Source of the DNA: Patescibacteria group bacterium | GTDB lineage: Bacteria > Patescibacteriota > Minisyncoccia > JAHIHE01 > JAGLIN01 | Assembly: GCA_029210775.1 (NCBI GenBank) | Contig: JARGGI010000002.1 | Span: 76,478 to 140,477 of the forward strand | DNA: 64,000 nt | Reading direction: 5' to 3' | In this document: one piece after another, positions 9,406-48,483 of the stretch | Numbering within the stretch: the stretch's first letter is position 1 | How the letters are laid out: each line of letters opens with the position of its first letter | Made by a program: the position numbers and the translations under genes | Notes under the pieces: model-generated | The model's input: the letters and a program-made list of their open reading frames with translations, nothing else | What the model was told of the DNA's origin: nothing | Databases searched by the model: none

Positions 9406-9414
9406 AAATTTAGA

Positions 9415-12415: not shown

Positions 12416-12444
12416 ATTATAAATTATTTTATTTCAGACGCGTC

Positions 12445-13008
12445 CTAAAACTCCACTTTCAGAGTCTCTTTTTCTTTCGGCTCTTCAATCTCAAAAAATT
12501 CTCTTTTTTTAATATTTAAAATCCCAGCGACAATACTATCGGGAAAAACAAGAATCTTCGTGTTGAGATCGCGCACATTGCCATTGTAAAATCTTCTTGA
12601 CGCCTGAATTTTATTTTCCGTATCAGAAAGCTCTCTTTGCAGTTCAAGAAAATTCTCGTTGGCTTTTAACTGCGGATAATTCTCACTAACCGCGAACAAG
12701 CTTTTCAAAGCTCCAGAAAGCATATTTTCCGCTCCTGCTTTTGCCTCAGGATTTTGAGTATTCATTGCGTTTGCTCTTGCCTTTGTCACTTTTTCAAAAA
12801 GCTCTCTTTCATGAGTTGCATAACCTTTCACAGTATTGATGAGGTTTGGGATTAAGTCATATCTTCTTTTAAGCTGCACATCAATGTCGCTCCATGCTTC
12901 ATTTGTTCGAACTTGCAATCTAACAAGAGCGTTGTATATCATCACAAACCACAATACTACTGCCACAATGATGACCAAAAGCACGATTAAAATTAAATTT
13001 GTTTCCAT
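12445..13008 (-). CDS. lemA: LemA family protein
   Basis: N-terminal TM helix followed by MIYNALVRLQVRTNEAWSDIDVQLKRRYDLIPNLINTVKGYATHERELFEKVTKARA, the conserved LemA core. Confidence 0.8.
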   Translation of the reverse strand: METNLILIVLLVIIVAVVLWFVMIYNALVRLQVRTNEAWSDIDVQLKRRYDLIPNLINTVKGYATHERELFEKVTKARANAMNTQNPEAKAGAENMLSGALKSLFAVSENYPQLKANENFLELQRELSDTENKIQASRRFYNGNVRDLNTKILVFPDSIVAGILNIKKREFFEIEEPKEKETLKVEF

Positions 13009-20471: not shown

Positions 20472-20825
20472 ATGATTAAAAAACTTATAATCCACATTCT
20501 AACAAATTCAATCGCAATTTATATAGCAGTTGAATTAGTTCCAGGCATTTCATTTTCTGAAAAAGACAATCTTGTCCCTTTCCTAACAGCTGGGTTTTTA
20601 TTAGGTTTAATAAACTTTTTTGTAAAACCTATACTGAAACTTATTTCAGCGCCAATAATATTTTTTACATTTGGTCTCTTTACAATTGCAATAAATATTG
20701 CTATGCTTCTTTTATTGGATTATTTCGTTCAAGAATTGATAATAGAAGGCTTATCGGCAGCATTTTGGGGTATGATTGTAATCAGCGCTGTTAACATCTT
20801 TATTGGAACCTTTTCGGAAAAATAA
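20472..20825 (+). CDS. 4-TM membrane protein of the 'phage holin 4_2 / DUF360' family
   Basis: 117 aa. MIKKLIIHILTNSIAIYIAVELVPGISF...LLGLINFFVKPILKLISAPIIFFTFGLF matches the pattern of that family (LLINAVALWVAALLVPGI...). Confidence 0.5.
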   Translation: MIKKLIIHILTNSIAIYIAVELVPGISFSEKDNLVPFLTAGFLLGLINFFVKPILKLISAPIIFFTFGLFTIAINIAMLLLLDYFVQELIIEGLSAAFWGMIVISAVNIFIGTFSEK

Positions 20826-29977: not shown

Positions 29978-30247
29978 TTATTTATCAGCCCCATTTAAAA
30001 ATTCAGAGCAACCTTCCTCGCATTGCATTGAACAAATCGCACATATGCTTTCAACAGTAGGATGACAATCTACTATCACAACACCTTCCGATTCCGACCC
30101 TTTTATAAAATTTCCGCTCATATTTTTTCCACCTTTTCTAATAATTTTTATTTTCGTTTTAAGGCAAAATTTTTTATTGCCCATAAAAAAATAACCTCTT
30201 ATCGAGGTTATCTTTTTATAAACAATAAATGTAAAATAGAAAAGCAA
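29978..30247 (-). CDS. small Cys-rich protein (hypothetical); true start probably internal (ATG at 30121 or 30184)
   Basis: C-terminal MSGNFIKGSESEGVVIVDCHPTVESICAICSMQCEEGCSEF. The N-terminal part of the track ORF is low-complexity. Confidence 0.3.
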   Translation of the reverse strand: MLFYFTFIVYKKITSIRGYFFMGNKKFCLKTKIKIIRKGGKNMSGNFIKGSESEGVVIVDCHPTVESICAICSMQCEEGCSEFLNGADK

Positions 30248-30381
30248 GGGGTGAGAAATCCAGTATTATTTTTTCTAAACATTACTGACATTGCCTACTT
30301 TTAAAATTTATTACTCCTGTTTGTTATTATCCTACAAATTAAGATTACCGTCAAGACCAGTTATCCACAGATAGTGCGTTC

Positions 30382-30480
30382 TGTTATTGCGAATCCGCAG
30401 GCGAAGCAATCCCATGACTATGCGCAAAGAATTCAGTTACGGGATTGCTTCAGTCGTTGCGACTCCTTCGCAATGACAAT
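30382..30480. repeat. MITE-like inverted pair (family A)
   Basis: tgttattgcgaatccgcaggcgaagcaatccc ... gggattgcttcagtcgttgcgactccttcgcaatgacaat: two units in opposite orientation forming a ~100-bp long-range palindrome. Confidence 0.6.
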
Positions 30481-30494
30481 TCATAATTCTCTGT

Positions 30495-31481
30495 CTATCT
30501 CTTATACTTATCTTTTATTCGTATAGTATCATTAGGATGCGGAGTTGAATATTCTTGAAGTATTGTATTTTCCAATGCTAAAATTGTGTGTGGTGTACAA
30601 GGCTCAATTCTAATTGTCTTATTTTCTTTTATATTAACTTCTTTATCATCAAATTTAATTATCACCTCTCCAGAAGTTATATGCATTGTTTCATCCTTTT
30701 TTTCGTGTTTATGATGAGATGTTCCTTCATTTTTCATCAAATACAATTCTTTCGTTAAATATTTATCAGTTAATACAATAATTTTTTCATAACCCCATGG
30801 CTTATCTTCTTTGTTTAAATATTCCTCATTTACTCTTTGTAAATCCTTTATTGAATCAACTGATTGCCAAAAAACACCCTCCTTGTAATAATTCATCAAT
30901 CCAGATTTTGCAATTTCTGGAAAAGACAGTTCTTCGACAGAACCTTCTTTGTGTTTAGAAAAAATAGGTTTAATGTCTTTTGATATAATATATATTCCCG
31001 CATTAAGATAATGATCAAGTTTTGGCTTTTCTTTAAATCCGATAATTTTATTTCCCGATAATTCTGCTATACCATAAGGAGAAATGAGAGGTGTAATATA
31101 CATCAGCATCTTATTTTTATGTTGACTTATCATTTCTTTAATATTCACATCGCAAACTACATCGCCATTTCTAATTACATAATCATCGCTCTCAAAATTA
31201 TCAAGCAAATTATTAATAGCATATAAAGTTCCTTTGGGCTCATCTTCAATTAAATAATTAATTTCAACGCCATTCCATTTTTTTCCAAATCTTTCTTGAA
31301 TTTTTTCGTGCAGATATCCGCAAAGCAAAACTACCTGATTTATACCAGCATATTTAAGTTGTAAGATCTGCTTGTCTAAAATTGTATAATCTTTTTTAAT
31401 CTCCAAAAGCGGCTTGGGAATGCGATCAGTCAAAGGCCTCAGCCTCTTTCCAAATCCTCCGCATAAAATTGCTCCGATCAT
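30495..31481 (-). CDS. sugar-1-phosphate nucleotidyltransferase with C-terminal cupin domain (ManC/GMP-PMI-like architecture)
   Basis: N-terminal MIGAILCGGFGKRLRPLTDRIPKPLLEI (NTP_transferase G-loop). C-terminal EKPWGYEKIIVL...HHKHEKKDETMHITSGEVII is cupin-like. Confidence 0.7.
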   Translation of the reverse strand: MIGAILCGGFGKRLRPLTDRIPKPLLEIKKDYTILDKQILQLKYAGINQVVLLCGYLHEKIQERFGKKWNGVEINYLIEDEPKGTLYAINNLLDNFESDDYVIRNGDVVCDVNIKEMISQHKNKMLMYITPLISPYGIAELSGNKIIGFKEKPKLDHYLNAGIYIISKDIKPIFSKHKEGSVEELSFPEIAKSGLMNYYKEGVFWQSVDSIKDLQRVNEEYLNKEDKPWGYEKIIVLTDKYLTKELYLMKNEGTSHHKHEKKDETMHITSGEVIIKFDDKEVNIKENKTIRIEPCTPHTILALENTILQEYSTPHPNDTIRIKDKYKR

Positions 31482-31700
31482 AATAGTTTTGTTAGTTTTT
31501 AATTATCTATAAATATAAATTTAAAATATCAGATTATGGCAAGCAAGTCAATGATTTGACAAAATTAATTATTTAATTTATAATCCATTGTTATTTAGTT
31601 TAGCTTCAGAGAAGAATATAAGTGATGGGCTTTTATTTCTATCTATATCAAACTAAATGATAATATACTTAATTGGTTTAATGATTTAATTATTATAAAA

Positions 31701-33884
31701 ATGTCAGAAGGACTATCAGTTGTCATACCGACTTACAACAAGAAAAAAAGGATTCATCGTAAAAAGGTCTGTATTATTATACCGACATATAACGAAAAAG
31801 AAAATATTACTAAATTAATAGATGCTCTTTTAGATGTGTTTAAAGACATTAAAAATTTCGAGATGAGTATTTTAGTGGTTGATGACAATTCTCCTGACGG
31901 AACAGGAAAAATAGTTAAGAAATATTCTATTAGCCCCCCCCATTGTCAAATTCATTTATTGAGCGGAAAAAAAGAAGGTCTGGGAAAAGCTTATATTCGC
32001 GGATTTAATTATGCTATTAAAAAACTCAAAGCTGATTTTGTTTTTGAAATGGATGCTGATTTTTCTCATAATCCATCAGACATTCCAAGATTTTTGGAAG
32101 CCGTAGAAAATGGATATGATTTTGTTATCGGCTCAAGATATGTTGAAGGAGGATCTATTCCTAATAATTGGGGAATAGTCAGAAAACTAAATAGCAAAGT
32201 TGGAAATATTTTTGCCCGCTTTATTGCTGGATTGTATCCTATTAAGGATTGCACCGCTGGCTATCGTTGTATCTCTGCAAAGATTATAAAAAAAATAGAT
32301 TTAGAAAATCTAAATGCGACTGGATATTCTTTTTCAATGAATTTCCTTTATGAAGCTATCCGAATTAAGGCAAAAGTTAAAGAAATTCCAGTAGATTTTA
32401 TTGATCGTAAATTTGGCGAATCAAAAATTGGTTTTAGCGATATAAAAGAATTTATAATAAATTCTTTTATATTGCGTTTAAAAAAATCACAAAAGATATT
32501 ATTACTTATTATAACAAGCATATTTTTAGAATGCTTGTTATTTAGCATTGGAACTATTGGCTTAGAACAAATTAATTTTTCTAAACTACTAATAGATTTT
32601 TATATAGCTATCTCGCTTTTAATGTCTGTCCAATGTCTGATGAATCTCTATATGACTTTGTATATTTGGGAAACACCGGAGAGAATGGAAAGAAATAAAT
32701 CTCCTAAGAAATTTTTAAAACCTAAAAAATCATTTTCTATTTTGCTTCCAGCTCGCAATGAGGAACAAGTAATTGGCAATACAATTCAGGGACTTTATAA
32801 TATAAATTATCCTAAAAACCTGATGGAAATTATTGTTATTTGCGAAAAAACAGATACTGGGACAATTCATCAAATAAGACAAAAAATGAATCAGATAAAT
32901 GATGATATTATTAAATTAGTTATTTTTGATGATAAGCCAATTAACAAACCTCACGGATTAAATAAAGGACTTGCGATAGCTAAAAATGAAGTAATTACAA
33001 TTTATGATGCCGAAGATGAAGTAAACCCTGATATTTTTAATGTTATTAATACAGTTATGGCTCAGAACAAAAATGTCGGAATAATACAAAGTGGAGTTCA
33101 GCTAATGAATTACAGCTCAAAGTGGTTTTCTTCTCATAATGTTCTAGAATATTACTTCTGGTTCAAGTCAAGATTGCATTTTCACGCTGATGTTGGAATG
33201 GTGCCATTAGGCGGTAATTCCGTGTTTTTTAAACATAAAATATTAAAGGAAATTAATGGCTGGGATGAAAATTGTTTGACGGAAGATGCTGACATTGGAA
33301 TTCGTTTAAGCACCAAAGGAATAAAGACGATGGTTATTTATGATGATTTATACGCGACAAGAGAAGAAGCGCCTGATACTATAAAATCATTTATAAAACA
33401 GCGCACCCGCTGGGTTCAGGGTTTTCTGCAAGTTTTTCTAAAATTTGACTGGCTACAATATCCAAAATTATCTCAAAAGCTTTTAGCTGTTTATATCTTG
33501 CTTATTCCTTTTTTACAAGCCATAATGATACTAATGCTTCCAGTATCATTGTTTATGATGTTCAAATTTAAATTACCGATTTTATCAACCATAATTCTTA
33601 TTTTGCCAGTATATTTATTGTTTATTCAACTAACTATTAGCTTGATAGGATTATATGAATTTATTAAAATATACAAATTGCGTTTTAATTATTTAACTTT
33701 TTTGGTTTTTGTTATTACATTCTTTCCTTATCAATGGATGTTGGGAATTTCGGCATTAAGAGGATTATTAAGACAAATTGTTGGAAAAAATAATTGGGAA
33801 AAAACAAAACATTTGGGAGCTCATAGAAATATTTATTCTTCAGAGAAAACTATATTAGAAAAAACTTATGAAACTGCAAATTAA
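31701..33884 (+). CDS. tandem family-2 glycosyltransferase fusion: GtrB/DPM1-like domain + processive beta-glycan synthase-like domain + C-terminal TM helices
   Basis: Domain 1: VCIIIPTYNEKENI...VVDDNSPDGT...EMDADFSHNP (polyprenyl-phosphate hexose synthase type). Domain 2: SILLPARNEEQVI, IYDAEDE, TEDADIG (TED), QRTRW (QxxRW), then 4-5 TM helices. Confidence 0.75.
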   Translation: MSEGLSVVIPTYNKKKRIHRKKVCIIIPTYNEKENITKLIDALLDVFKDIKNFEMSILVVDDNSPDGTGKIVKKYSISPPHCQIHLLSGKKEGLGKAYIRGFNYAIKKLKADFVFEMDADFSHNPSDIPRFLEAVENGYDFVIGSRYVEGGSIPNNWGIVRKLNSKVGNIFARFIAGLYPIKDCTAGYRCISAKIIKKIDLENLNATGYSFSMNFLYEAIRIKAKVKEIPVDFIDRKFGESKIGFSDIKEFIINSFILRLKKSQKILLLIITSIFLECLLFSIGTIGLEQINFSKLLIDFYIAISLLMSVQCLMNLYMTLYIWETPERMERNKSPKKFLKPKKSFSILLPARNEEQVIGNTIQGLYNINYPKNLMEIIVICEKTDTGTIHQIRQKMNQINDDIIKLVIFDDKPINKPHGLNKGLAIAKNEVITIYDAEDEVNPDIFNVINTVMAQNKNVGIIQSGVQLMNYSSKWFSSHNVLEYYFWFKSRLHFHADVGMVPLGGNSVFFKHKILKEINGWDENCLTEDADIGIRLSTKGIKTMVIYDDLYATREEAPDTIKSFIKQRTRWVQGFLQVFLKFDWLQYPKLSQKLLAVYILLIPFLQAIMILMLPVSLFMMFKFKLPILSTIILILPVYLLFIQLTISLIGLYEFIKIYKLRFNYLTFLVFVITFFPYQWMLGISALRGLLRQIVGKNNWEKTKHLGAHRNIYSSEKTILEKTYETAN

Positions 33885-36489
33885 ACTAATCTTAAACAAC
33901 ATAAAAAACTTTATTATAAAAAGAAAGGAGTTTTTTGTTATTGTTATTTTATTGTTAATTTCAGGAATAGCTCACGGATATAATATGTTTAACTTTCCTT
34001 ACTACGCAAATGATGAAGGAACATATATGTCTCAAGCATGGGCAGTATTAAATCAAGGAACACTATCGCATTATACTTACTGGTATGACCATTCTCCTGC
34101 AGGATGGTTATTGATTGCTTTATGGACCAAACTAACAGGCGGGTTTTTTACTTTTGGCATATCAATAAATTCAGGCAGAGTTTTAATGCTGGTTTTGCAT
34201 TTGTTTTCAACTTTTTTTCTTTTTAAGATAGCCAAGAAAATGACTGGAAGTATATATGCCGGGTTTTTTTCTGCTTTGATTTTTGCCTTGTCTCCATTGG
34301 GAATTTATTTTCAAAGAAGAGTGCTACTTGATAATATTATGGTGTTTTGGCTTTTAATGTCACTACATTTAATTCTTTGTTTTAAGAAGAGATTATTAAT
34401 AATAGTTTTCAGCGCTATAACTTTTGCTTTATCAGTATTATCAAAAGAAAGTGGGATTTTTTTCTTGCCAGTAATGTTATATTTGGTTTTTATTCAAACT
34501 GATAAACAACACAAGCGATTAGGGCTTATTCTTTGGATTGTTTTATTCGGATTAATTTGTTCCTCATATCCTCTCTATGCCTTTTTAAAAGGAGAACTAT
34601 TTCCGATGGGTTCAATATTTGACTCAGGCGGAGAACATGTAAGTTTAATTGAAACTTTAATTTGGCAAGCTACAAGAGAAGGGGAAATGATTTTAGATTT
34701 GCCAAGACGATGGCTTAATGCTGATATACTTACGATTCTCTTAGGAATTATAACTATTTTTATAAACCTTTTAATAGGAATAAAGAAAAAATATTACATG
34801 ATTACTGCCTTATTGTCACTTTCTTATATTTTTTATTTAATAAGAGGAGGATTAGTATTAGAATTTTACATTATTGGTCTTATTCCATTTCTTGCTTTAA
34901 ATGTAGGATCGTTTGTTTATTTTTTAATAGGGAAAATAAACAATGTTAAATTAAGATATTTTCTTGTTTTGTTTTTGTCTTTGTTTTTTTCTTGTTATTT
35001 AATAAATGAGGGTAAAAGCATTAAAAGCTCTTTGACAGAAGAAGATAATTTATATCTATCAAACCAAACTATAAGTCAAATAGAAGCATTAAATTGGTCA
35101 AAAGCAAATATTACGAACGATAGAATGATAGTTATTGATAATTATTGTTATATAGACCTAAAAGATAGCTATGCAACCACTATTCCTTATAAAAAAGCTC
35201 ATTGGTATTGGAAGGTAGCAAAAGATCCCGAAATTAGAGATTCGTTTTTGAAAAATAACTGGCAAAACATTGATTATATCCTTTCAACTCCACAGATGGA
35301 AAATGATCTTAAAACTATGGATTCTAAACTTTTACAAGAGTCTTTTAGTTATTCAAGACCAATAAAAAAGTTTTGGTCAAATGGCTGGGGAGTAAATGTT
35401 TGGAAAATATATAATCCAAAACAAATCCTTGAAGAATCTTGGCAAAGCTACAAAACCCATTTTATAACTTCTGAAAATAAAATAACTGATCCTTACAATA
35501 ATAATTCCACCACATCCGAAGGGCAATCTTACGCTATGTTGCGAGCGGTTTGGATGGACGATAAAGAAACTTTTGACAATGTTCTTGGCTGGACAAATGA
35601 AAATCTAAAATTAACAAATAGCAATCTCTTTGCTTGGTCATGGATTCAAGATGATGATGGCAAATGGGGAATAAGAGACGAAGGCACAGCAACAGACGCT
35701 GATCAAGATATTGCCTTAGCGTTATTATTTGCTTACAAAAAATGGGATAATGCCACATATTTAGAACAAGCTAAAAAAATAATAAGCGACATTTGGGATT
35801 ACGAAGTTGTAGAAATTCAAAAAAAACATTATTTAACCGCTGGCAATTGGACATCAACAAAAAAAGATATTGTTATAAATCCTTCTTATTTAGCTCCTTA
35901 CGCTTATCGCATATTCGCGGAAATTGATCCTTCGCATAATTGGATGGAGTTAGTGAACACTTCTTACGATATTTTATATAACAGTTCCGAATCCTTATTG
36001 GGATATAATAAAAGCATTGGACTACCGCCGAATTGGTGCGCTATAAATCCCGATGAAGAAATAATATCCGCCGAGCACCTTGGAGATTTTTCGCGGGATT
36101 ATTCTTATGACGCAATTAGAACGCCATGGAGAATTGCTCTTGATTATCAATGGAATAAAGAACCACGCGCTAAAAAATATTTAGAATCCTTAGAATTTTT
36201 AAATAAAGAATGGCTGGAAAAGAAAAAAATATCAGCTTCTTATAGTCACGATGGCGAGCATTGGGAAAATTATGAATCAACTGCGTCTTATGGAACTAAT
36301 TTAGGATACTTTATTATTACTAATCCCGAAACAGCTCAAGAAATTTACGAAGAGAAAATATTAGGAAAATATTTTGAAGATGAAGAAAAAAGCTATTGGA
36401 ACGATCCGAAAAATTATTATGAACAGAACTGGGGATGGTTCGGAACGGCATTATACGCTGACAAATTGCCAAATCTTTGGAATCAATAA
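33868..36489 (+). CDS. fusion of a polytopic GT-C-like membrane domain (ArnT/PMT-like) with a C-terminal glycoside hydrolase family 8 domain
   Basis: 873 aa. ~11 TM helices in the first ~390 aa, with YYANDEGTYMSQAW in the first loop. The C-terminal domain carries ATDADQDIALALLFAYKKW, which matches the GH8 signature A-[ST]-D-[AG]-D-x2-[IM]-A-x-[SA]-[LIVM]-[LIVMG]-x-A-x3-[FW] at every position. Start overlaps the upstream gene by 17 nt. Confidence 0.7.
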   Translation: MKLQIKLILNNIKNFIIKRKEFFVIVILLLISGIAHGYNMFNFPYYANDEGTYMSQAWAVLNQGTLSHYTYWYDHSPAGWLLIALWTKLTGGFFTFGISINSGRVLMLVLHLFSTFFLFKIAKKMTGSIYAGFFSALIFALSPLGIYFQRRVLLDNIMVFWLLMSLHLILCFKKRLLIIVFSAITFALSVLSKESGIFFLPVMLYLVFIQTDKQHKRLGLILWIVLFGLICSSYPLYAFLKGELFPMGSIFDSGGEHVSLIETLIWQATREGEMILDLPRRWLNADILTILLGIITIFINLLIGIKKKYYMITALLSLSYIFYLIRGGLVLEFYIIGLIPFLALNVGSFVYFLIGKINNVKLRYFLVLFLSLFFSCYLINEGKSIKSSLTEEDNLYLSNQTISQIEALNWSKANITNDRMIVIDNYCYIDLKDSYATTIPYKKAHWYWKVAKDPEIRDSFLKNNWQNIDYILSTPQMENDLKTMDSKLLQESFSYSRPIKKFWSNGWGVNVWKIYNPKQILEESWQSYKTHFITSENKITDPYNNNSTTSEGQSYAMLRAVWMDDKETFDNVLGWTNENLKLTNSNLFAWSWIQDDDGKWGIRDEGTATDADQDIALALLFAYKKWDNATYLEQAKKIISDIWDYEVVEIQKKHYLTAGNWTSTKKDIVINPSYLAPYAYRIFAEIDPSHNWMELVNTSYDILYNSSESLLGYNKSIGLPPNWCAINPDEEIISAEHLGDFSRDYSYDAIRTPWRIALDYQWNKEPRAKKYLESLEFLNKEWLEKKKISASYSHDGEHWENYESTASYGTNLGYFIITNPETAQEIYEEKILGKYFEDEEKSYWNDPKNYYEQNWGWFGTALYADKLPNLWNQ

Positions 36490-36926
36490 AAATAAGCATT
36501 ATGAATCAACAAACATTGAGATTTACAAAATTTTGTATAGTTGGAGGAAGTGGAGTAATAGTTAATCTGGGACTTCTGTTTGTTCTTGTTGAATATTTTT
36601 ATTTAGGTGAAAATTTAGCATGGTTAATCGCAATACTGGCGTCAATACTTAATAATTTTCTATGGAACAATGCTTTCACTTACAATGATCGCAGATCTAA
36701 TTCTCACAATGAAACTATGCGAAGAATTGTTTATTATTATCTAATATCTTTAGGTGTTATGCTGTTTAATTTTGCAATTTATAAAATAGGAATATCTTGG
36801 GGTTTTTATTATATTTTGTCTGCCTTTATGGGAATATTTTTTTCCACTTTCTTAAATTTTGCGTTAATAAATAAATTGGTTTGGAATAATAGTTTGACAA
36901 AAGTTCAAATAAAAAATAGAACATAG
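36477..36926 (+). CDS. GtrA family membrane protein (polyprenyl-phosphate-sugar flippase-associated)
   Basis: 149 aa, 4 TM. FTKFCIVGGSGVIVNLGLLFVL...ILNNFLWNNAFTYND typical of GtrA. Overlaps the upstream gene by 13 nt. Confidence 0.7.
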   Translation: MESIKISIMNQQTLRFTKFCIVGGSGVIVNLGLLFVLVEYFYLGENLAWLIAILASILNNFLWNNAFTYNDRRSNSHNETMRRIVYYYLISLGVMLFNFAIYKIGISWGFYYILSAFMGIFFSTFLNFALINKLVWNNSLTKVQIKNRT

Positions 36927-36986
36927 AAAGATTAAAAAAAATAATACAGAAAAACACTTTTTGTATTAACACAATTAAACAAAAAA

Positions 36987-37016
36987 AATGATTTCTATTT
37001 AGGAATCATTTTTTTG
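36987..37016 (+). terminator. terminator after the GT2/GT-C/GtrA operon (possibly bidirectional with the convergent pmm gene)
   Basis: aatgatt-tctatttagg-aatcatt followed by ttttt. Confidence 0.5.
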
Positions 37017-37121
37017 TTGTTAATTTAATTCTCATAACTTAAATTGATAATAAAATATACTTTTAAATCTCAGATTATATTTATTAATCAACTTTTCTAT
37101 GGTTTTTTGTTTTTTCTAAAC

Positions 37122-38486
37122 CTACTTCTTAATAAACTCCGCCACTTCCTTCACTTTTTTCTCCATCAACTCCTTCGTCTTCGCTTCCAAATTTAATCTA
37201 ATCAAAGGCTCTGTATTTGACCCGCGCAAATTGAACCACAAATCGGAATATTCAACAGTTACGCCATCTAATTTATTTATCTCGCCGTCGCTAAATTTTT
37301 CCTCCGCTTCTTTTAATTTTTTCGCTACATTGGCCACTTTAAAATTTATCTCGCCCGAATGAAAATACTTTTTATATGACTGAACGATTTCAGAAAATGC
37401 CATATTTTTCCCAGAAAGAAACTCCAAAAATTTCGCCATTAAAATTACCGGCATTTCAAAAGTGCCGTAAGGTTTCTTATAAAAATAGTGCCCCGAAGAT
37501 TCTCCTCCAAAAATCGCCTCATTTTTTATCATTATTTCTTTGATCAAAGAATGTCCAACCGGCGTAACAATTGATTTTCCGCCCATCTCCTCAATCATAT
37601 CTTTGGTAATTCTTCCCGGCCTAATGTCATAAGCAACGGTCGCTCCTGAATTTTCAGCAAGCTCTATTTGCGCCATAATACCGCGCAATATTTCTTGCCT
37701 TAAAGAATTACCATTTTCGTCAACAAAAAAATACCGATCGGCATCGCCGTCTATTGCAACGCCAAAATCAGCTTTATTTTCAATGACTTTTTGCCTTAAC
37801 AGTTCAAGATTTTCTTCTTTAAGAGGATCCGCCTCGTGAGAAGGAAAATTTCCATCAAGTTTAAAATTAATTTTTATTAATTCCGCCGGAACTTTTTTAA
37901 AAAATTCTTCCATATCAAGAGCCCCCATAGAATTTGCCGCGTCAACAACTATTTTGAATTTTTTTATTTTTGTAATATCTATATCAGCCAGTTGATTGCT
38001 GACAAGTTCCTGTAAAATATTTTCTTTTTTAATAATTTCTCCCTCTTCTTTCCTTGCTCTAAAATCATTTTCTAAAATGATATTTTTAATTTCCATAATT
38101 CCCGTATCTTTGCTAATTGGCAATGAATTATTTTTTACCATTTTAAAACCATTATACTCTTTTGGATTATGAGATGCTGAAACCTGAATTCCTCCATCAT
38201 ATTTATAAAATCCGACAGCAAAATAAAATGTAGGCGTACTAACCAAACCAACATCAACCACATTTAAACCACTCTCAATTAATCCTCTAATTAGCTCTTT
38301 CTTTAAAGTTGGAGAAGAAAGGCGCATATCAGATCCAATAACAATATTTTTTGCTTTGGGATTATCTCTTAAAATAAAAGTTGCATATCCCCTGCCTAAA
38401 TTATAAGCAAACTCTTCATTAAGTTGAGTTGGATAAATTCCCCGAATATCATATGCTTTAAAAATTGATTCATTTATTTTATTCAT
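37122..38486 (-). CDS. phosphomannomutase/phosphoglucomutase
   Basis: 454 aa. FKAYDIRGIYP and active-site SASHNPKEYNGFK. Confidence 0.85.
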   Translation of the reverse strand: MNKINESIFKAYDIRGIYPTQLNEEFAYNLGRGYATFILRDNPKAKNIVIGSDMRLSSPTLKKELIRGLIESGLNVVDVGLVSTPTFYFAVGFYKYDGGIQVSASHNPKEYNGFKMVKNNSLPISKDTGIMEIKNIILENDFRARKEEGEIIKKENILQELVSNQLADIDITKIKKFKIVVDAANSMGALDMEEFFKKVPAELIKINFKLDGNFPSHEADPLKEENLELLRQKVIENKADFGVAIDGDADRYFFVDENGNSLRQEILRGIMAQIELAENSGATVAYDIRPGRITKDMIEEMGGKSIVTPVGHSLIKEIMIKNEAIFGGESSGHYFYKKPYGTFEMPVILMAKFLEFLSGKNMAFSEIVQSYKKYFHSGEINFKVANVAKKLKEAEEKFSDGEINKLDGVTVEYSDLWFNLRGSNTEPLIRLNLEAKTKELMEKKVKEVAEFIKK

Positions 38487-38489
38487 AAA

Positions 38490-39116
38490 TTAATCTCTTA
38501 AATTATTTATAATACCCTCAAGCTTATTTAAATCCTGAATTATATAATTCGTAAGTTCTGATTTTGTTTCTGTGTGTCCTCCTTGTGCTCTTATCATTTT
38601 CATTGCTATAACATTTGGTAATCTTTTTTTTACATCATCAATGGCTTTCGCTTTATCTTCTATAAAAACTATACTTCCATTATATTTTTTTTGAATTTCT
38701 TCCATATCATCAGCTTTATTTCTTGAAGTAATTATAATTTCACTAAAATATTTTGAAATTCCAGAATTTTCAATCTTTGTTTTTTGAAATTCAGTAGTTC
38801 CAAAAGATAATAGAATAAGTTTCTCTTTTTTAAAACTTGAAACAAAATCAAAAAAATCCCGATAAACGAATTCGTTTGATTTATTGATTATAAAATCAAT
38901 CTTTTTATTTATCTCTTCCTTATTAAAATTTTTTAAACTGTAAATTAAATCTACAAAAATATCTTTATCAAAATCACCTATTTTTTTCTTACACTGTCTA
39001 TAAACATCCCAAAATTGTTCTTCATTAAAACCCTCTATAAGAAATATTTTTAGAAATTCCTGCATTAATCCATATGTATTAAAAATTGTATCATCAAAAT
39101 CTAAAACTATTTTCAT
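38490..39116 (-). CDS. HAD-superfamily hydrolase-like protein (paralog 1)
   Basis: MKIVLDFDDTIFNT (DxDxT motif I). 208 aa. Tandem paralog of the next gene. Confidence 0.5.
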   Translation of the reverse strand: MKIVLDFDDTIFNTYGLMQEFLKIFLIEGFNEEQFWDVYRQCKKKIGDFDKDIFVDLIYSLKNFNKEEINKKIDFIINKSNEFVYRDFFDFVSSFKKEKLILLSFGTTEFQKTKIENSGISKYFSEIIITSRNKADDMEEIQKKYNGSIVFIEDKAKAIDDVKKRLPNVIAMKMIRAQGGHTETKSELTNYIIQDLNKLEGIINNLRD

Positions 39117-39751
39117 TATTTTTCTTTCGTTGTTAATTTTTTAATTATTTTTTCTGCTTGTGACAAATTTTTCACTACAAAATTTGTTTTCTCTGACTTT
39201 ATTATAGAATAGACCCCCCTTAGTCTTTCAATTTTTATCGTCACTATCCCTGTTAACAATTTTTCTGCTTGATCAATTTCAGAAGCCTTGTCATCTATAA
39301 AAAACAATCTTTCTATTGAATATTTTCTATAAATTGATTCCAGCTTTTCCATCTTATTATCGGTTATATATATCTTATCAAAAAAATTATTTACTTTTGA
39401 ATTTTTAATTTTCTTCTTTTGAAGAGATGTTAATCCAAATGAAAGAAGAATTAGGTCTTTTTTATTGAAATTATTAAAAAATTTATAAAAATCAGGATAG
39501 ATAAAATTTTCAGAATTTTTCAATAACGACGCGATTTCTGCTGTGACTCCCATTTTATTATCAAAATCAAGATTTATAAGCAAATCAATAATTTCTTTTT
39601 GATTAAAATCTGATTTTTTTTCTTTTGCTTTTTTGTAAATTTCTTTAAATTCAGCAGATTTATATCCAGCTTTCTTTAAGTTATTCAAAAGCGTTTGGGT
39701 TAGTTTATATGTATCAAAAATTGTATCATCAAACCCTATGACTATTTTCAT
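39116..39751 (-). CDS. HAD-superfamily hydrolase-like protein (paralog 2)
   Basis: MKIVIGFDDTIFDT. 211 aa. Collinear similarity to 38490..39116 along the whole length. Confidence 0.5.
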   Translation of the reverse strand: MKIVIGFDDTIFDTYKLTQTLLNNLKKAGYKSAEFKEIYKKAKEKKSDFNQKEIIDLLINLDFDNKMGVTAEIASLLKNSENFIYPDFYKFFNNFNKKDLILLSFGLTSLQKKKIKNSKVNNFFDKIYITDNKMEKLESIYRKYSIERLFFIDDKASEIDQAEKLLTGIVTIKIERLRGVYSIIKSEKTNFVVKNLSQAEKIIKKLTTKEK

Positions 39752-39760
39752 TGTTTTTTC

Positions 39761-40960
39761 TTAGTTTTTAGTTAAATCTGATTTAATTATATCTCCTGGT
39801 AATGTCCATACGTTGGGACTTATTTTTACTCCTGGATAAAATGAAGTATGAATCCCAGTTTTTACATTATCACCGATCACAACACCAAGTTTTTGTCTCC
39901 CAGAATCAATTAAATTTTCATTTAATTTAGATTTTATACTTTTCCAATCGTGACGTAAATTAGCCGTAATCGTCCCCGCTCCCAAATTACAATTATCACC
40001 AATGACAGAATCTCCGACATAAGAAAGATGTGCGACATTCGTGTTATCGCCAATAATAGAATTTTTTATTTCCACCGCTTGACCAATATGAGAATTATTT
40101 CCGATAACCGTAAAAGCACGTAAATAACAATTCGGACCGATTACGCAATTCTCACCAATCATCACAGGTCCTTCTAAGTAGCTTCCTGATTTAATAATTG
40201 TGTTTTTCCCAATAATAATTTTTCCCTTTAAAATTGCTCCCTTTTCAATGTTGGTTTTCTTATTTATTTTAGATTTTATTCTATTTAGAATAAATTCATT
40301 TGCTTCTATAATATTCCACGGATATGAAATGGGAAGCCAATAATCTTCCACTTGAACAATATTAATTTTTTCCTTTTTTGCCATCAAATTATATGCATCT
40401 GTTAGCTCATATTCCCCTCTTTCAGATATACTTATTTCATCAAGAACATTAAAAATATTTTTTGAAAAAACAAAACAACCAATATTTACTAAATCTGAAA
40501 CAAATTTTTTTGGTTTTTCAACTACTTCACAAAAAAAATTATTTTTTGTCTTTAAAACTCCAAAACATTCAGGATTATTAACTTTCTGAGCAAGTATCGC
40601 ATTTTTATGCTTTAATAAGTTTTTTATATCTTTTCTACTATAAAGATCATCCCCAAACATTAAAATAAAATTGCTTTTAATAAACTTTTTAACTAACTTC
40701 AAGGCATCTGCGTTTCCTAATTGCTCATTTTGAATTATATAGTTAATTTTAATTTTTCCAAACTTATTTCCTAAAAAGTTTTCAATCATATCAGCTTTAT
40801 ATCCAACTACAATAAACACTTCATCTACAAAACTTTCTAGTTGCTTCAGGCTATGTTCAATAATGGTTTTGTTCGCCACTTTCAAAAGAGGCTTTGGTTT
40901 GGTTAAAGTTAAAGGATATGTCCTAGTTGACTTTCCAGCTGCTAAAATTACTGCTTGCAT
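39761..40960 (-). CDS. sugar-1-phosphate nucleotidyltransferase with C-terminal left-handed beta-helix (hexapeptide) domain (GlmU/archaeal-type)
   Basis: MQAVILAAGKSTRTYPLTLTKPKPLL. C-terminal hexapeptide repeats (IGKNTIIKSGSYLEGPVMIGENCVIGPNCYLRAFTVIGNNSHIG...). Confidence 0.75.
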   Translation of the reverse strand: MQAVILAAGKSTRTYPLTLTKPKPLLKVANKTIIEHSLKQLESFVDEVFIVVGYKADMIENFLGNKFGKIKINYIIQNEQLGNADALKLVKKFIKSNFILMFGDDLYSRKDIKNLLKHKNAILAQKVNNPECFGVLKTKNNFFCEVVEKPKKFVSDLVNIGCFVFSKNIFNVLDEISISERGEYELTDAYNLMAKKEKINIVQVEDYWLPISYPWNIIEANEFILNRIKSKINKKTNIEKGAILKGKIIIGKNTIIKSGSYLEGPVMIGENCVIGPNCYLRAFTVIGNNSHIGQAVEIKNSIIGDNTNVAHLSYVGDSVIGDNCNLGAGTITANLRHDWKSIKSKLNENLIDSGRQKLGVVIGDNVKTGIHTSFYPGVKISPNVWTLPGDIIKSDLTKN

Positions 40961-41040
40961 ATAAAAAAATTAATAATAATTTAGAATGACAAATTAAGAT
41001 GATAAAATTATTCTAATTATTGTGGCTACTAACCTTCTTT

Positions 41041-41165
41041 GTTATTACGAAAAGCATCAGCAACAAAGCAATCTCTTGCTTTCGTTCTATCGATAAAATG
41101 TAAAATAACTTTTGATTTGTTTTTATAGCTCTGAGATTGCTTCGCTGATGCTCGCAATGACAGAT
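41041..41165. repeat. MITE-like inverted pair (family A)
   Basis: gttattacgaaaagcatcagcaacaaagcaatctc ... gagattgcttcgctgatgctcgcaatgacag. Confidence 0.5.
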
Positions 41166-41220
41166 TTTTAGGATAAACGTTTTTTAGAATAACTGAGTAA
41201 TTACTAATTGTTTTGCATTT

Positions 41221-42294
41221 TTATTTTCCAATAATTACTTCCTGCGTCGGATATGGAATTTTTATCCCCTCTTTTTTAAATCTTCTATAAATTTCTTCAT
41301 TAATTTTTGTTTTTACGGAAAATTTCTTCTTAGGACTATCAACCCAAACTATTACCAAAAATTCTAATCCATAATCTCCTAATTCAGTAAAATATACGGA
41401 AGGCTCTGGTTTTTTTTCAACCCCTTCAATGTTCTCTGCAACAGCAAGAAGAGTTTCTTTAACTTTATCAATATCAGAACCATAGGCAACTTTTACTGTC
41501 ACCTTTTCTTTAATTTTTGATGCAGGTTGATTATAATTTATAATTTTGGAACTGGCAATAATATTATTTGGGATTACAACGACAGTTTCATCAAAAGTTT
41601 TTATTCTTGTTGATCTTATCCCAATTTCAAGAACATCTCCAATTTCTCCACTTTCAATCTGAACTCTATCTCCCACTCTAAAAGGCTTGTCAAAATAAAT
41701 TGAAATTCCACCAAACAAATGCGAGATTGTATCCTGAGCTGCAAAGGCAATTACAAATCCTGCAATTCCAGCTGAAGCTAAAAGCGGAGTAATATCTATA
41801 TTCCACATTTTAAGCAAAAACATTATGCCTGCAAAAAAGATAATTATATTACTTAATTTTTGAAATAGAGGCATAAGTTCGTCATCTAGTGTGGATTTTG
41901 TTTTTTCAGCAAATTTAAATCCGAGTTCAGAAATTATCACATTTACAAGCTTTGATATTGCATAAATCCAAATTAAAATCGCAATGGATTTGATTATTAG
42001 AGAAAAATCATCAGAATATCTTGTAAGAATACCAATGTAATTAAATGCTTGATAAACACCCAAGAGAACGACTGAGTAGAAAATTGGCATATTTAATATT
42101 TTCATAATTTTGTCATCTGTATCATTCTTTGTTTTTACTGTCAAAAACTTAAATACCTTGTTAAATAGAAAATTTGTAATTTGAGCAAGAATGAAAAAGA
42201 CAATCAAGATTATCAAAGCAACAACATATGAAGCAATGTTTATTCCTGTATACATACCTAATGTTTGGTTTAATTGTGCGAAATAGTCAATCAT
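41221..42294 (-). CDS. mechanosensitive ion channel, MscS family
   Basis: 357 aa. TM helices, then AAQDTISHLFGGISIYFDKPFRVGDRVQIESGEIGDVLEIGIRSTRIKTFDETVVVIPNNII. Confidence 0.8.
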   Translation of the reverse strand: MIDYFAQLNQTLGMYTGINIASYVVALIILIVFFILAQITNFLFNKVFKFLTVKTKNDTDDKIMKILNMPIFYSVVLLGVYQAFNYIGILTRYSDDFSLIIKSIAILIWIYAISKLVNVIISELGFKFAEKTKSTLDDELMPLFQKLSNIIIFFAGIMFLLKMWNIDITPLLASAGIAGFVIAFAAQDTISHLFGGISIYFDKPFRVGDRVQIESGEIGDVLEIGIRSTRIKTFDETVVVIPNNIIASSKIINYNQPASKIKEKVTVKVAYGSDIDKVKETLLAVAENIEGVEKKPEPSVYFTELGDYGLEFLVIVWVDSPKKKFSVKTKINEEIYRRFKKEGIKIPYPTQEVIIGK

Positions 42295-47685: not shown

Positions 47686-48483
47686 CTATGGTCCTATAAA
47701 TTCAATATTTTCTATTGAATCTAAACTCTCTTCTATCGCAATATCTTTTTGCTCTTCTTCTGTTTTATTTATGTTAGTTGGGACAGATTCAAATGTTTTT
47801 TTATAAATTATATTCCTAATTCTTGTGTCAGATTTATTAAATCTATTCACGGCCTCAATATTAAGAATATTATTTCCAGGTTTTAACAAAATTATCTCAC
47901 TAAAATATCCTTCAGAATCAACAAAAACATCCTCACCGTTTATTTTTATGACTGCTTCTTTTTCTGTTTGTCCGGCAACTTCAATTTCCGATGTCTCTGA
48001 TATCATATCTTCAACTGGACTTGAAATAAAAAGATATGGCACTGAATTAAAAGAACTTATCTGATACCATAAATAATAACCAATTATAAGTAAAAAAAAT
48101 AAGCTGAAGAAAACAGTTAATATCTTTGGAGTTATTATTACATACTTAGAAATAAACAAATCTTTCTTTTTCTTTTTCTTTTTTGGATTCTTCTTATTTT
48201 CAATTTTGTTTCCAATTGCTCTTTCTGTGCCATATAATCTTGCCATTTTTTCTGGATCAAATCCAACATACTTAGAATAGCTTTTGACAAAACCCTTAAC
48301 ATAAACATCTGGAGGAAGTTTGTTATAATTATTCTCTTCAAGATCTTCAATGTAGCTGATTCTTATCTTTAACTTTTCGCTAATTTGTTTGATAGAAATC
48401 CCCATTTCTTCCCTTTTCTTTTTTAGATATTCACCAACAGTAATATTACTATATATTTTTTTAGTTTTAAATCTAGTCAGCAT
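47686..48483 (-). CDS. RodZ-like protein (N-terminal XRE-type HTH, TM helix, C-terminal domain)
   Basis: ITVGEYLKKKREEMGISIKQISEKLKIRISYIEDLEENNYNKLPPDVYVKGFVKSYSKYVG is the typical RodZ N-terminus. K-rich linker. One TM helix. Confidence 0.5.
   Translation of the reverse strand: MLTRFKTKKIYSNITVGEYLKKKREEMGISIKQISEKLKIRISYIEDLEENNYNKLPPDVYVKGFVKSYSKYVGFDPEKMARLYGTERAIGNKIENKKNPKKKKKKKDLFISKYVIITPKILTVFFSLFFLLIIGYYLWYQISSFNSVPYLFISSPVEDMISETSEIEVAGQTEKEAVIKINGEDVFVDSEGYFSEIILLKPGNNILNIEAVNRFNKSDTRIRNIIYKKTFESVPTNINKTEEEQKDIAIEESLDSIENIEFIGP

Follow-up and report, generated by a model that had tools for sequence, protein, structure and literature searches.

A Patescibacteria operon that probably encodes a membrane machine making, decorating and cutting a cellulose-like surface sugar polymer

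Previous work has described the Bcs, Ccs and Csl systems as sharing one design, in which a synthase is combined with a non-homologous partner and a glucanase (PMC11022532, PMC9040799). CslA resembles BcsA and has 7 TM helices, a gating loop and PilZ elements (PMC11022532), and GlxA is a proven partner of a cellulose synthase (PMC11022532, PMC9040799). In surveys, the GH8 genes of CPR bacteria have been counted among the cellulases acting on environmental carbon (PMC12153355). We analysed a DNA stretch of 64,000 nucleotides from a Patescibacteria bacterium (the window), in which a QxxRW-type GT2 synthase is encoded next to a GT-C glycosyltransferase carrying a GH8 domain. A first-pass annotation had considered this architecture undescribed and, in agreement with this, we found no description of a synthase–GT-C–GH8 gene set in the searchable literature.

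The three-gene operon and its surroundings

The eight open reading frames of the first-pass annotation were all recovered, at exactly the coordinates listed below and with the domains and motifs assigned to them (ORF list, Pfam). The features are as follows.

30495..31481, minus strand: sugar-1-P nucleotidyltransferase with a cupin domain resembling the GMP/PMI C-terminus (NTP_transferase, 1e-30; Cupin_2)
31556..31584, plus strand: candidate operon promoter, TTGACA-17-TATAAT (12/12 against the sigma-70 consensus; in a 220-bp divergent intergenic region)
31701..33884, plus strand: gene 1, 727 aa, in which a polyprenyl-phosphate glycosyltransferase is fused through a TM hairpin to a small membrane GT2 synthase (Pfam, homologues, AF2)
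31758..32480, plus strand: DPMS/GtrB/ArnC-like GT2 domain, aa 20-260 (similarity to PDB 5mlz, motifs)
32490..32657, plus strand: two TM helices, aa 264-319, linking both cytoplasmic GT2 domains (AF2 helices 264-288 and 293-319; hydropathy)
32718..33884, plus strand: synthase module, aa 340-727 (motifs, NCBIfam, fold matches)
33868..36489, plus strand: gene 2, an 873-aa GT-C-GH8 fusion (Pfam, homologues, AF2)
33868..35016, plus strand: GT-C membrane domain, aa 1-383, PMT/ArnT-like, 11 TM helices, N-terminus in, C-terminus out
35017..35412, plus strand: extracytoplasmic alpha/beta domain, aa 384-515 (matches of GT-C-only proteins reach about residue 510)
35413..36489, plus strand: GH8 (alpha/alpha)6 domain, aa 516-873 (catalytic E551, D610/D612/D614, D748)
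36477..36926, plus strand: gene 3, a GtrA-family small membrane protein, putative polyprenyl-P-sugar flippase (Pfam PF04138)
37122..38486, minus strand: PMM/PGM-type phosphohexomutase (Pfam PGM_PMM I-IV)
38490..39751, minus strand: two tandem HAD-superfamily paralogues (Pfam; mutual identity 40%, E 1e-46)
39761..40960, minus strand: archaeal-type bifunctional GlmU-like sugar-1-P nucleotidyltransferase/acetyltransferase (NTP_transferase and Hexapep; TIGR03992)

The whole of 30495-40960 had been taken as one locus. Because the flanking nucleotide-sugar genes adjoin only 0-2 of 85 related loci, we restrict the functional unit to 31701-36926, i.e. three plus-strand genes with overlapping starts, as had been noted (17 nt between genes 1 and 2, 33868 versus 33884; 13 nt between genes 2 and 3, 36477 versus 36489). 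The candidate promoter is the sole 12/12 sigma-70 match within 30200-41400; since the total of promoter-like sites in that interval is not above shuffle expectation, its assignment to the operon is suggestive only. The nucleotidyltransferase–cupin gene had been correctly placed and assigned, except for its orientation: it is a minus-strand gene that diverges from the operon. In this genome its product may provide GDP-mannose, and genes of its type adjoin 1 of the 85 related loci. At the other end, 37122-40960 comprises four minus-strand genes, convergent to the operon as annotated (PMM/PGM, two HAD paralogues and an LbH-type nucleotidyltransferase; Pfam). The phosphohexomutase (neighbour in 2/85 loci) reached the curated cutoff of neither the PMM/PGM nor the archaeal GlmM model, and the HAD pair was a neighbour in 0/85. 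The last gene (1/85) passed the archaeal-type GlmU model (TIGR03992; 493.6 bits, cutoff 292.1) and therefore probably represents a housekeeping UDP-GlcNAc supply.

Gene 1 is the predicted tandem GT2 fusion, with a GtrB/DPM1-like first domain and a synthase as the second (Pfam, motifs, 5mlz match). Pfam matches were to Glycos_transf_2 (aa 24-199), Glyco_tranf_2_3 (aa 345-574, 1.4e-42), Glyco_trans_2_3 (aa 432-639) and, weakly, to Glyco_transf_21 (1.4e-4; about 1e-9 in actinobacterial relatives). Both GT2 domains are predicted to be cytoplasmic (AF2, hydropathy); the pTM of the AF2 model (0.62; pLDDT 86.6) means that it carries little information on their mutual arrangement. The first domain is organised as a polyprenyl-phosphate glycosyltransferase, with a GT-A domain containing DxD, TM helices thereafter and solved homologues; D61 and D118-x-D120 were invariant in the 30 homologues aligned. 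By sequence it matched the Dol-P-Man synthase of P. furiosus (PDB 5mlz) with an E-value of 2.6e-33, as compared with 5e-14 for ArnC and 6e-6 for GtrB, and 5mlz was also the top fold match (34% identity), with ArnC and GtrB next. Because of this proximity to Dol-P-Man synthase and of the adjoining nucleotidyltransferase–cupin gene, the sugar loaded by this domain is probably mannose, from GDP-mannose.

The processive-synthase motifs DAED, TED and QRTRW annotated in the second domain are located at aa 436-439, 527-529 and 567-571; D385, D436-A-E-D439, T527-E-D529 and Q567-R-T-R-W571 were invariant in 30/30 homologues. It goes with 2 + 3 long helices (AF2, hydropathy), the last three (590-694) at the C-terminus. 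Its cytosolic tail is conserved (P676...W699-x-K-T-x-H704...R709), and this C-terminal segment occupies the position of the BcsA gating loop. Its fold matched BcsA, hyaluronan synthases and CesA, and also the mannosyltransferase PcManGT (6yv7). PcManGT has been described as a non-processive enzyme of N-glycan biosynthesis, and QxxRW is also present in non-processive GT21 enzymes. The best NCBIfam match was PgaC_IcaA (TIGR03937; 122 bits, cutoff 422), which was covered over nearly the whole model, flanking TM helices included. PgaC and IcaA depend on a separate membrane partner (PgaD and IcaD). Scores with CelA (TIGR03030; 60 bits, cutoff 699), BcsA (NF008558; 46, cutoff 992) and NodC (TIGR04242; 36, cutoff 550) were likewise below the curated equivalog cutoffs. 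By these NCBIfam scores the synthase is not a BcsA orthologue and has a small, PgaC/IcaA-like architecture.

Gene 2 contains PMT_2 and Glyco_hydro_8 in a single ORF, in agreement with the annotated fusion of a GT-C membrane domain to GH8 (AF2 pLDDT 88.1, pTM 0.77). The PMT_2 match (aa 74-232, 1.5e-9) is above cutoff and places the membrane domain in the GT-C class. Its first outer loop bears D49-E50 and Y69TYWYDH75, and R150, R151, D155, K193 and R270 are conserved elsewhere, so that an acidic loop motif is combined with basic residues of the lipid-phosphate type; D49-E50, D74-H75, R150, D155, K193 and R270 were invariant in 24 GT-C sequences from three phyla. The best fold neighbour was yeast Pmt4, with ArnT and ALG12 among the top ones and the oligosaccharyltransferases AglB and STT3 also present. 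We did not assign the domain to PMT proper, because the PMT model PF02366 scored below cutoff (21.8 versus 22.7 bits), a MIR domain is absent and the GT-C profile matched no PDB sequence at E ≤ 10. The segment aa 384-515 is part of the GT-C family, being present in GT-C-only relatives. In keeping with the glycosylation and trimming outside the membrane proposed earlier, the active-site loop of the GT-C and the GH8 domain are both predicted to lie on the outer side (AF2, hydropathy). As for the acceptor of the GT-C, either a protein or a lipid is conceivable.

The GH8 domain was identified by Pfam (PF01270, aa 522-788, 3.3e-49), its (alpha/alpha)6 barrel and a PROSITE-like signature, ATDADQDIA, around D610/D612/D614. 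The catalytic set is intact, as E551, D610/D612/D614 and D748 align with E95, D152 and D278 of CelA (GH8a type), and aa 516-873 are predicted to form a β-1,4 hydrolase. Sequence similarity decreased from CelA (6e-28) to BcsZ-type enzymes (about 1e-20), chitosanase (4e-15) and xylanases (about 1e-10). The fold nearly superimposes on BcsZ (TM 0.86); the score with the BcsZ equivalog NF008305 was 136.2 bits (cutoff 299), and neither BcsB nor a PilZ-bearing BcsA was found in the window or its relatives. Thus, Pfam, motifs and fold all bear out the earlier GH8 and synthase-type GT2 assignments.

Gene 3 belongs to the GtrA family (PF04138; 75.6 bits, cutoff 26.1; 4.7e-21). It starts with TTG, with an ATG 8 codons downstream, and has three hydrophobic regions, the first of which (aa 16-45) could hold two helices. 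The GtrA/GtrB/GT-C triad is therefore present in one operon, as annotated (Pfam, ORFs); GtrA-like, GtrB-like and GT-C proteins also occur together in loci L001, L013, L037, L045, L051, L062, L090 and L091.

Conservation of the synthase–GT-C pair and its hydrolases

Identical gene products were present in NCBI, from a Patescibacteria MAG contig of 147,279 bp. In one close relative (L013, 74% identity) apparent frameshifts break up the synthase and GT-C genes, an observation that could suggest that the fusions themselves arose by misassembly or frameshift in a metagenome-assembled genome. This was refuted by the search for the same fusions in other genomes: each had more than 100 full-length homologues (42-89% identity), from independent assemblies that included complete chromosomes, and AF2 yielded confident single-chain models of both. 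We consider that there is virtually no chance of an artefact. The fusions are thus genuine, as had been claimed, but they represent one of several natural arrangements. The genes are separate in actinobacteria, and DPM-GtrA fusions, a triple DPM-GtrA-synthase fusion and lone synthases also occur.

Relatives of the GT-C(-GH8) protein are encoded in at least 584 species genomes. Among the 84 loci compared, which came from Patescibacteria, Chloroflexota and Actinomycetota, 73 had the synthase immediately upstream of the GT-C, and most of the exceptions were contig edges or tandem paralogues. This adjacency is close to obligate across the three phyla. When three distant GT2-GT2 homologues were followed reciprocally, the GT-C was downstream in all. 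GH8 accompanied the pair in 58 loci and was covalently fused to the GT-C in 48, a DPM-like gene was found within 6 kb in 38/84, and a GtrA gene in 11/84. A Microbacterium cluster comprises synthase, GT-C, DUF4397, GH8, sortase and DPM-GT2 as separate genes. Streptomyces loci, which were fetched separately, contain synthase, GT-C, DPM-GtrA and a GlxA-like gene, with the same synthase-to-GT-C order; their modules are 37%, 36% and 29% identical to those of the window, the synthase value being for the 423-aa orthologue over 408 aa. The Streptomyces copy is apparently a separate, uncharacterised operon.

All catalytic residues were kept in 38/62 GH8 copies across the family; the base Asp was replaced by Asn in 7/62 and the acid Glu lost in about 15/62, about a quarter being catalytically degenerate. 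Because of these degenerate copies and of the absence of GH8 from about 30% of loci, hydrolysis is not universally required. GH6 (the CslZ family) replaced or joined GH8 in 6 loci, and GH3 (fused or adjacent), GH5, GH44 and GH113 were also seen near the pair. GlxA orthologues (E about 1e-89 to PDB 4unm) were found in 7 loci, beside the pair in Saccharibacteria, Pseudonocardiaceae and Streptomyces. Some related clusters contain LysM domains and a sortase. The pairing of a synthase with GH8, proposed earlier as the logic of cellulose or poly-β-glycan synthesis, is upheld. Since non-homologous cellulase families and GlxA orthologues accompany the pair, its product is probably β-1,4-glucan-like; we are also open to a mannan- or GlcNAc-containing product, in view of GH113 (a mannanase family), LysM and the GH3 variants.

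Proposed mechanism and alternatives

We see an even chance that 31701-36926 encodes a monoderm bacterium's self-contained machine for an envelope glycan, and that this is a fourth system of the 'synthase–partner–glucanase' type. Its polymer would probably be β-1,4-glucan-like, and its partner a catalytically intact GT-C supplied with polyprenyl-phosphate-sugar. The small QxxRW synthase would polymerise a nucleotide-sugar into a β-linked chain, most likely β-1,4-glucan-like, and thread it across the membrane, with the GT-C as its obligatory membrane partner, like BcsB, CcsB and GlxA for BcsA, CcsA and CslA. The fused DPMS-like domain would load a hexose, probably mannose, onto polyprenyl phosphate, GtrA would flip the lipid-linked sugar to the outer face, and the GT-C would transfer it there onto the emerging polymer or the polymer's acceptor. 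The tethered GH8 would then cut β-1,4 bonds beside the exit site, either for chain trimming or release, as proposed for BcsZ, or for passage through the wall, as has been suggested for CslZ of Streptomyces. GH6, GH5, GH44, GH3 or a GlxA-type copper oxidase would take or supplement this extracellular role in other lineages. In this scheme, the side-chain glycosylation and trimming first suggested for the polymer are putative.

An alternative that we find unlikely, though not negligible, is that the DPMS-like domain makes a polyprenyl-P-hexose primer, which the synthase elongates and exports, the GT-C ligating the chain en bloc to peptidoglycan, protein or a lipid anchor and GH8 setting its length. 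The physical fusion of the primer-making domain to the synthase, the triple DPM-GtrA-synthase fusions, the presence of AglB and STT3 among the fold neighbours, and the sortase and LysM domains, suggestive of wall attachment, would agree with this. However, a separate donor pathway fits better with the many lineages that have a lone synthase or a DPM-GtrA fusion, GtrA implies a small lipid-linked sugar flipped independently of the synthase, and the top GT-C neighbours (Pmt4, ArnT, ALG12) move single sugars from monophosphate carriers.

It is decidedly improbable, in our opinion, that the GT2 is a non- or short-processive glycolipid glycosyltransferase making an anchor, extended by the GT-C with polyprenyl-P-mannose to a lipomannan-like macroamphiphile, with GH8 serving mainly in glycan binding or remodelling. 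Actinobacteria do make lipomannans with GT-C enzymes and polyprenyl-P-mannose; the weak to moderate Glyco_transf_21 matches, the minimal cellulose-synthase-like fold common to PcManGT and the many degenerate GH8 copies point the same way. Against this stand the five different β-glycanase families and the GlxA orthologues that recur beside the pair, the invariant D/DxD/TED/QxxRW residues with the gating-loop-like segment, and the retention of every catalytic residue in the majority of GH8 copies. We give very little credence to two unrelated functions, i.e. a PMT-like enzyme that O-mannosylates surface proteins and a nutritional cellulase/chitosanase acting on environmental or host polymers, the customary interpretation of CPR GH8 genes. 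Pmt4 as best fold neighbour and the counting of CPR GH8 genes as carbon-degrading cellulases (PMC12153355) would favour this reading, but it does not account for the GT-C-GH8 fusions or the adjoining synthase in three phyla; a hydrolase tethered near a synthase, sometimes as a dead copy, is hard to square with foraging, and the PMT and PDB results given above do not support it.

Returning to the synthase–partner–glucanase reading, we tentatively extend it as follows. In monoderm bacteria (Patescibacteria, Chloroflexota, Actinomycetota) the pair would define an ancient, hitherto unrecognised class of machinery for synthase-dependent envelope polysaccharides, with an active GT-C as the obligatory co-subunit that modifies or ligates nascent β-glucan at the membrane exit. 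In many CPR cells its product would be the chief surface polymer apart from peptidoglycan, and most CPR 'cellulases' (GH8, GH6, GH5, GH44 and GH3 beside the pair) would then be biosynthetic accessories and not carbon-degrading enzymes. The envelopes of CPR bacteria are almost unknown, and a module this widespread among species genomes is a strong candidate for producing a major surface polymer and for a role in host attachment. The 'cellulase' genes of these minimal bacteria may serve construction and not nutrition; if the GH8 hydrolases belong to a biosynthetic machine, metabolic inferences from CPR GH8 counts are biased. As the module is also present, apparently unstudied, in Streptomyces, which is genetically tractable, and in further cultured actinobacteria, the hypothesis is open to direct test.

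Comparison with known systems

Actinobacterial Ppm1/PMT and archaeal AglJ/AglD-AglR-AglS mannosylation also combine a DPMS-like enzyme with a PMT/ArnT-class GT-C, and the DPMS-GtrA fusions of relatives mirror archaeal DPMS architecture (5mlz), but the gene context of the window gives no sign of a protein acceptor. Three-component glycosylation (GtrA-GtrB-GtrC; CsbB/GtcA/YfhO; GacI/J/K/L) likewise has a polyprenyl-P-sugar GT2, GtrA and GT-C co-encoded, with the active-site loop outside (PMC11127046). In the window, by contrast, the GT-C is tied to a synthase gene and not to a Wzy- or ABC-dependent glycan, it bears a glycoside hydrolase, and the GT2 is nearest to Dol-P-Man synthase and not GtrB. 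If our reading is true, it would link synthase-dependent export to this lipid-linked glycosylation.

The poly-β-1,6-GlcNAc synthases PgaCD/IcaAD are the best curated match of the synthase module, but the window has neither a deacetylase nor a GH153/GH20 hydrolase, and the associated hydrolases are of β-1,4-specific families. BcsA-BcsB-BcsZ and CcsA-CcsB-CcsZ share with it the synthase, partner and endoglucanase and the D/DxD/TED/QxxRW motifs. The window differs from them in lacking a BcsB/CcsB homologue, a PilZ domain and outer-membrane parts, and in having its hydrolase fused to a partner that is itself a glycosyltransferase; if confirmed, an active GT-C would be a fourth kind of partner in the Bcs/Ccs/Csl design.

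The published Csl cluster contains no GT-C, DPM-like GT2 or GtrA (PMC9040799). The window locus cannot be assigned to CslA-GlxA-CslZ, since GlxA and GH6 are present only in relatives and not in the window itself, and since its GT2 is smaller and different (a PgaC-like module of about 400 aa). The Streptomyces CslA-GlxA-CslZ(-LpmP) system nevertheless resembles it in its monoderm host and in its combination of a GT2 synthase, a non-homologous membrane-anchored extracellular partner and a β-1,4-glucanase, and the relatives of the window locus carry GlxA orthologues and GH6 beside the pair.

Extent of the operon and reality of its fusions

The first-pass annotation had treated positions 30495–40960 as a single glycan-synthesis locus. 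All eight ORFs that it named were present with exact coordinates, every domain call was backed by Pfam, and the quoted motifs were found in the 727-aa product of gene 1 (DAED at aa 436–439, TED at 527–529, and QRTRW at 567–571). The nucleotidyltransferase-cupin ORF at 30495–31481 kept its coordinates but was reassigned to the minus strand, divergent from the plus-strand genes. A single conserved locus of this size was not borne out. The flanking nucleotide-sugar genes were neighbours in 0–2 of 85 related loci, and the LbH enzyme of the flank passed the archaeal-type GlmU model. We therefore reduced the 10.5-kb locus to a 5.2-kb operon of three plus-strand genes, which overlap by 17 nt and 13 nt:

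31556–31584 (+): candidate promoter, exact TTGACA-17-TATAAT, 5' of the three-gene operon
31701–33884 (+): gene 1, GT2-GT2 protein (DPMS-like GT2 and synthase), 727 aa
33868–36489 (+): gene 2, GT-C-GH8 protein, 873 aa
36477–36926 (+): gene 3, GtrA-family protein (Pfam)
3' of the operon, ahead of the convergent genes: AT-rich hairpin, read directly in the sequence

The window has a G+C content of ~30% and ordinary chromosomal gene content (rpoB/rpoC, groEL, uvrA, recA, ftsK, and one tRNA). Elsewhere in it, a 601-aa protein (59264–61069, minus strand) matched PF05693 Glycogen_syn (glycogen synthases of the eukaryote type) with an E-value of 3.9e-146, not a usual finding in a Patescibacteria genome of reduced size. 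The minus-strand region 3876–13008 encodes LemA, two M48 peptidases, two TSP3-repeat proteins, an AbiEii toxin, and a 682-aa protein for which Pfam gave no match. A holin-superfamily-IV protein (20472–20825) and an HTH_25 + Glucodextran_B protein (47686–48483) were also observed.

The two fusions were searched for in other genomes, as the first-pass annotation had proposed, and each had more than 100 full-length homologues (42–76% identity for GT-C-GH8, 40–89% for GT2-GT2). Sequences identical to both large proteins were found at NCBI on a 147,279-bp contig of a Patescibacteria group bacterium MAG. Many of these lay on the same contigs, complete chromosomes among them, which rules out an assembly artefact; we consider it practically out of the question that the fusions are spurious. 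Single-chain AF2 models were confident for both gene 2 (pLDDT 88.1, pTM 0.77) and gene 1 (pLDDT 86.6, pTM 0.62). In the nearest species-level relative (L013, 74% identical), the DPM domain is fused to the downstream GtrA, not to the synthase, and the synthase and GT-C genes are interrupted by apparent frameshifts.

Domains and membrane topology

Residues 20–260 of gene 1 were closest to the Pyrococcus Dol-P-Man synthase (5mlz, E 2.6e-33, 34% identity), which was also the top fold match, followed by ArnC and GtrB; D61 and D118-x-D120 were invariant. Two TM helices (aa 264–319) bring the chain back to the cytoplasm, where residues 340–727 form a second GT2 domain with invariant D/DxD/TED/QxxRW; three long helices come after it, and the tail is basic and conserved. 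The best curated match of this synthase module was PgaC/IcaA (122 bits over almost the full model, far under the cutoff), while the CelA, BcsA, and NodC models scored lower. The fold matches of the module were BcsA, hyaluronan synthases, and CesA, and also PcManGT, a non-processive mannosyltransferase. Orthology to BcsA, BcsZ, or PgaC was ruled out by the curated model cutoffs. As to a possible gating loop, phmmer placed the FNVTAK segment of BcsA on L681–R687 of gene 1 rather than on the conserved W699-x-K-T-x-H704. Near the start of gene 1, at its 5' end, an imperfect duplication (31720–31754 versus 31774–31808, 54-nt spacing, 74% identity) repeats the first beta-strand motif V-I-P-T-Y-N and yields an 18-aa N-terminal extension missing from homologues; residues 1–17 had a pLDDT below 50.

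The product of gene 2 has 11 TM helices, with its N-terminus inside and its C-terminus outside. The first outer loop of the GT-C domain carries D49-E50 and Y69TYWYDH75, which, together with R150, D155, K193, and R270, did not vary across 24 sequences drawn from three phyla. An extracytoplasmic alpha/beta domain (aa 384–515) is part of the GT-C family. The GT-C profile gave no sequence match to solved structures even at E≤10, and a fold search was therefore used instead. The predicted topology is coherent, with both GT2 domains inside and the GT-C active loop and GH8 outside.

Distribution, accessory enzymes and likely product

When one genome per species was scanned, at least 584 genomes proved to encode a relative of the GT-C protein. 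Using HMMs made from the window's own domains, we compared 84 distinct loci and found the synthase directly upstream of the GT-C gene in 73, the exceptions being mostly contig ends or tandem paralogues. In a reverse search, each of three distant gene 1 homologues had a GT-C gene downstream. Among long representatives of the GT-C family, no Rosetta-stone fusion of synthase and GT-C was found; the long forms were fusions with transposase, DnaJ, DUF4388, GH3, and LysM. Many classes of Patescibacteria have the pair, as do Chloroflexota and cultured members of the Actinomycetota (Mycobacterium sp., Microbacterium, Arthrobacter, Nocardioides, Frigoribacterium, Actinomadura, Pseudonocardiaceae, and, very widely, Streptomyces). 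Identity between the window and S. pristinaespiralis was 37% for the synthase, 36% for the GT-C, and 29% for the DPM domain. Several MAG records titled 'uncultured Gammaproteobacteria/Pseudomonadales/Bdellovibrionales' (L008, L014, L015, L018, L023, L025–L027, L037, L047, L065) share this gene order and encode proteins with 34–46% identity to the Patescibacteria protein; these titles are probably wrong.

The fusion state is fluid across lineages. Gene 1-type arrangements comprised DPM+synthase (as in the window), DPM+GtrA, DPM+GtrA+synthase, FHA+DPM+synthase, and the synthase alone, while GT-C and GH8 were fused in 48 of the 84 loci, GH8 was separate and downstream in 10, and 26 were without it. 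The FHA-GT2-GT2 proteins (P0223–P0231) hint at phospho-regulation. In Streptomyces the pair belongs to a four-gene operon distinct from the published cslA-glxA-cslZ cluster:

L090 9001–15643 and L091 9001–15567: 423-aa synthase, GT-C, DPM-GtrA fusion, GlxA-like oxidase

It is preceded by a Thioredox_DsbH (alpha/alpha)6-type protein. Locus L090 corresponds to 3,426,271–3,445,542 of S. pristinaespiralis CP011340. A single synthase cluster comprises 950 sequences.

The extracellular enzymes beside the pair vary by genome, with GH8 in 58 loci and GH6 in six; GH3, fused to GT-C or adjoining, GH5, GH44, and GH113 also accompany it. The families GH5, GH6, GH8, and GH44 include cellulases. Copper-radical oxidases, found in seven loci, matched PDB 4unm, GlxA of S. 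lividans, at ~1e-89, as against 1e-31 for fungal galactose oxidase. Experiments have established GlxA as the partner of CslA, the cellulose synthase of Streptomyces (PMC11022532). From these cellulase-containing families, the GlxA-CslA precedent, and the finding that the closest relatives of the GH8 domain of gene 2 are cellulases, we infer, with a slight leaning in its favour, a beta-1,4-glucan-like product. The GH113, LysM, and GH3 variants mean that it may instead contain mannan or GlcNAc. Among these variants are GT-C-GH3 proteins with GH3 in place of GH8 (P0375, L047, L060) and proteins with an appended LysM, a peptidoglycan/chitin-binding domain (GT-C-GH8-LysM in P0293, DnaJ-GT-C-LysM in P0381).

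Hydrolysis is not always needed: ~30% of loci have no GH8, and among 62 copies the acid Glu is missing in ~15 and the base is Asn in 7. Two loci (L028, L030) combine a fused GH8 copy without the catalytic Glu and a second, intact copy. This suggests that GH8 also serves in binding or as a scaffold, with binding and hydrolysis split between the copies. Tandem GT-C-GH8 paralogues or an additional GH8 protein were seen in L028, L030, and L021. In actinobacterial clusters (L073 7888–10513, L072 5965–8652), a DUF4397 protein and a sortase lie among GT-C, GH8, and DPM-like GT2 genes, and DUF4397 is fused to GT-C in Mycobacterium sp. URHB0044, suggesting a wall-anchored protein component.

Proposed mechanism and relation to known systems

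On the best-supported model our belief and doubt are about evenly balanced. The operon structure, the domains with their motifs, the topology, and the conservation are shown; that the synthase is processive, which sugars are used, what serves as the GT-C acceptor, and what GH8 does are inferred. A chain would be made and exported by the synthase, for which the GT-C protein would be an obligatory partner. The DPMS-like domain would load a hexose, probably mannose, onto polyprenyl phosphate, GtrA would flip the lipid-linked sugar, and GT-C would add the sugar on the outer side of the membrane. GH8 would make its cuts where the chain exits, and in doing so either trim the chain or open the wall.

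Other arrangements of the same parts appear less probable. A lipid-primed chain, with the GT-C protein acting as ligase, is unlikely. A lipoglycan pathway in which the GT2 is non-processive is, in our view, likewise unlikely. It would be quite surprising if the GT-C and the GH8 served two unrelated functions, O-mannosylation by the GT-C and foraging by the GH8 as a cellulase.

The first-pass observation was confirmed, and its interpretation held in part and was extended by comparative genomics: the domains and fusions stood, but not the extent of the locus, the flanks not being conserved neighbours. We found no description of the synthase-GT-C(-GH8) module in the searchable full-text literature, which leaves out most subscription journals, nor of the Streptomyces four-gene operon in the searchable literature. 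The Streptomyces accounts (PMC11022532, PMC9040799, Liman 2013) make no mention of a GT-C, GtrA, or polyprenyl component. Database names for the module proteins are generic ('glycosyl hydrolase family 8', 'glycosyltransferase family 39 protein', 'XagB'). The Actinoplanes gsf 'GtrA-dependent' cluster was rejected as the same system, its gene set being different, and Listeria PssZ is a GH126 enzyme, hence no GH8 precedent (PMC7479077).

What bacterial cellulose systems have in common is a core synthase together with a glucanase and a second partner that is not homologous between systems (PMC11022532), and the CslZ glucanase has been proposed to aid passage of the polymer through the wall (PMC9040799). 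The parts of the present system are familiar; what is unfamiliar is that a small synthase is coupled almost obligately to a GT-C predicted to be active, that GT-C is fused to hydrolases, and that the distribution is so broad. We tentatively raise the possibility of a distinct, ancient class of monoderm polysaccharide machinery, which would also recast CPR 'cellulases'. In its logic the system resembles a combination of the Bcs, Ccs, and Csl triads with three-component glycosylation. By each family's own criteria it does not belong to the BcsA, BcsZ, PgaC, PMT, or CslA families.
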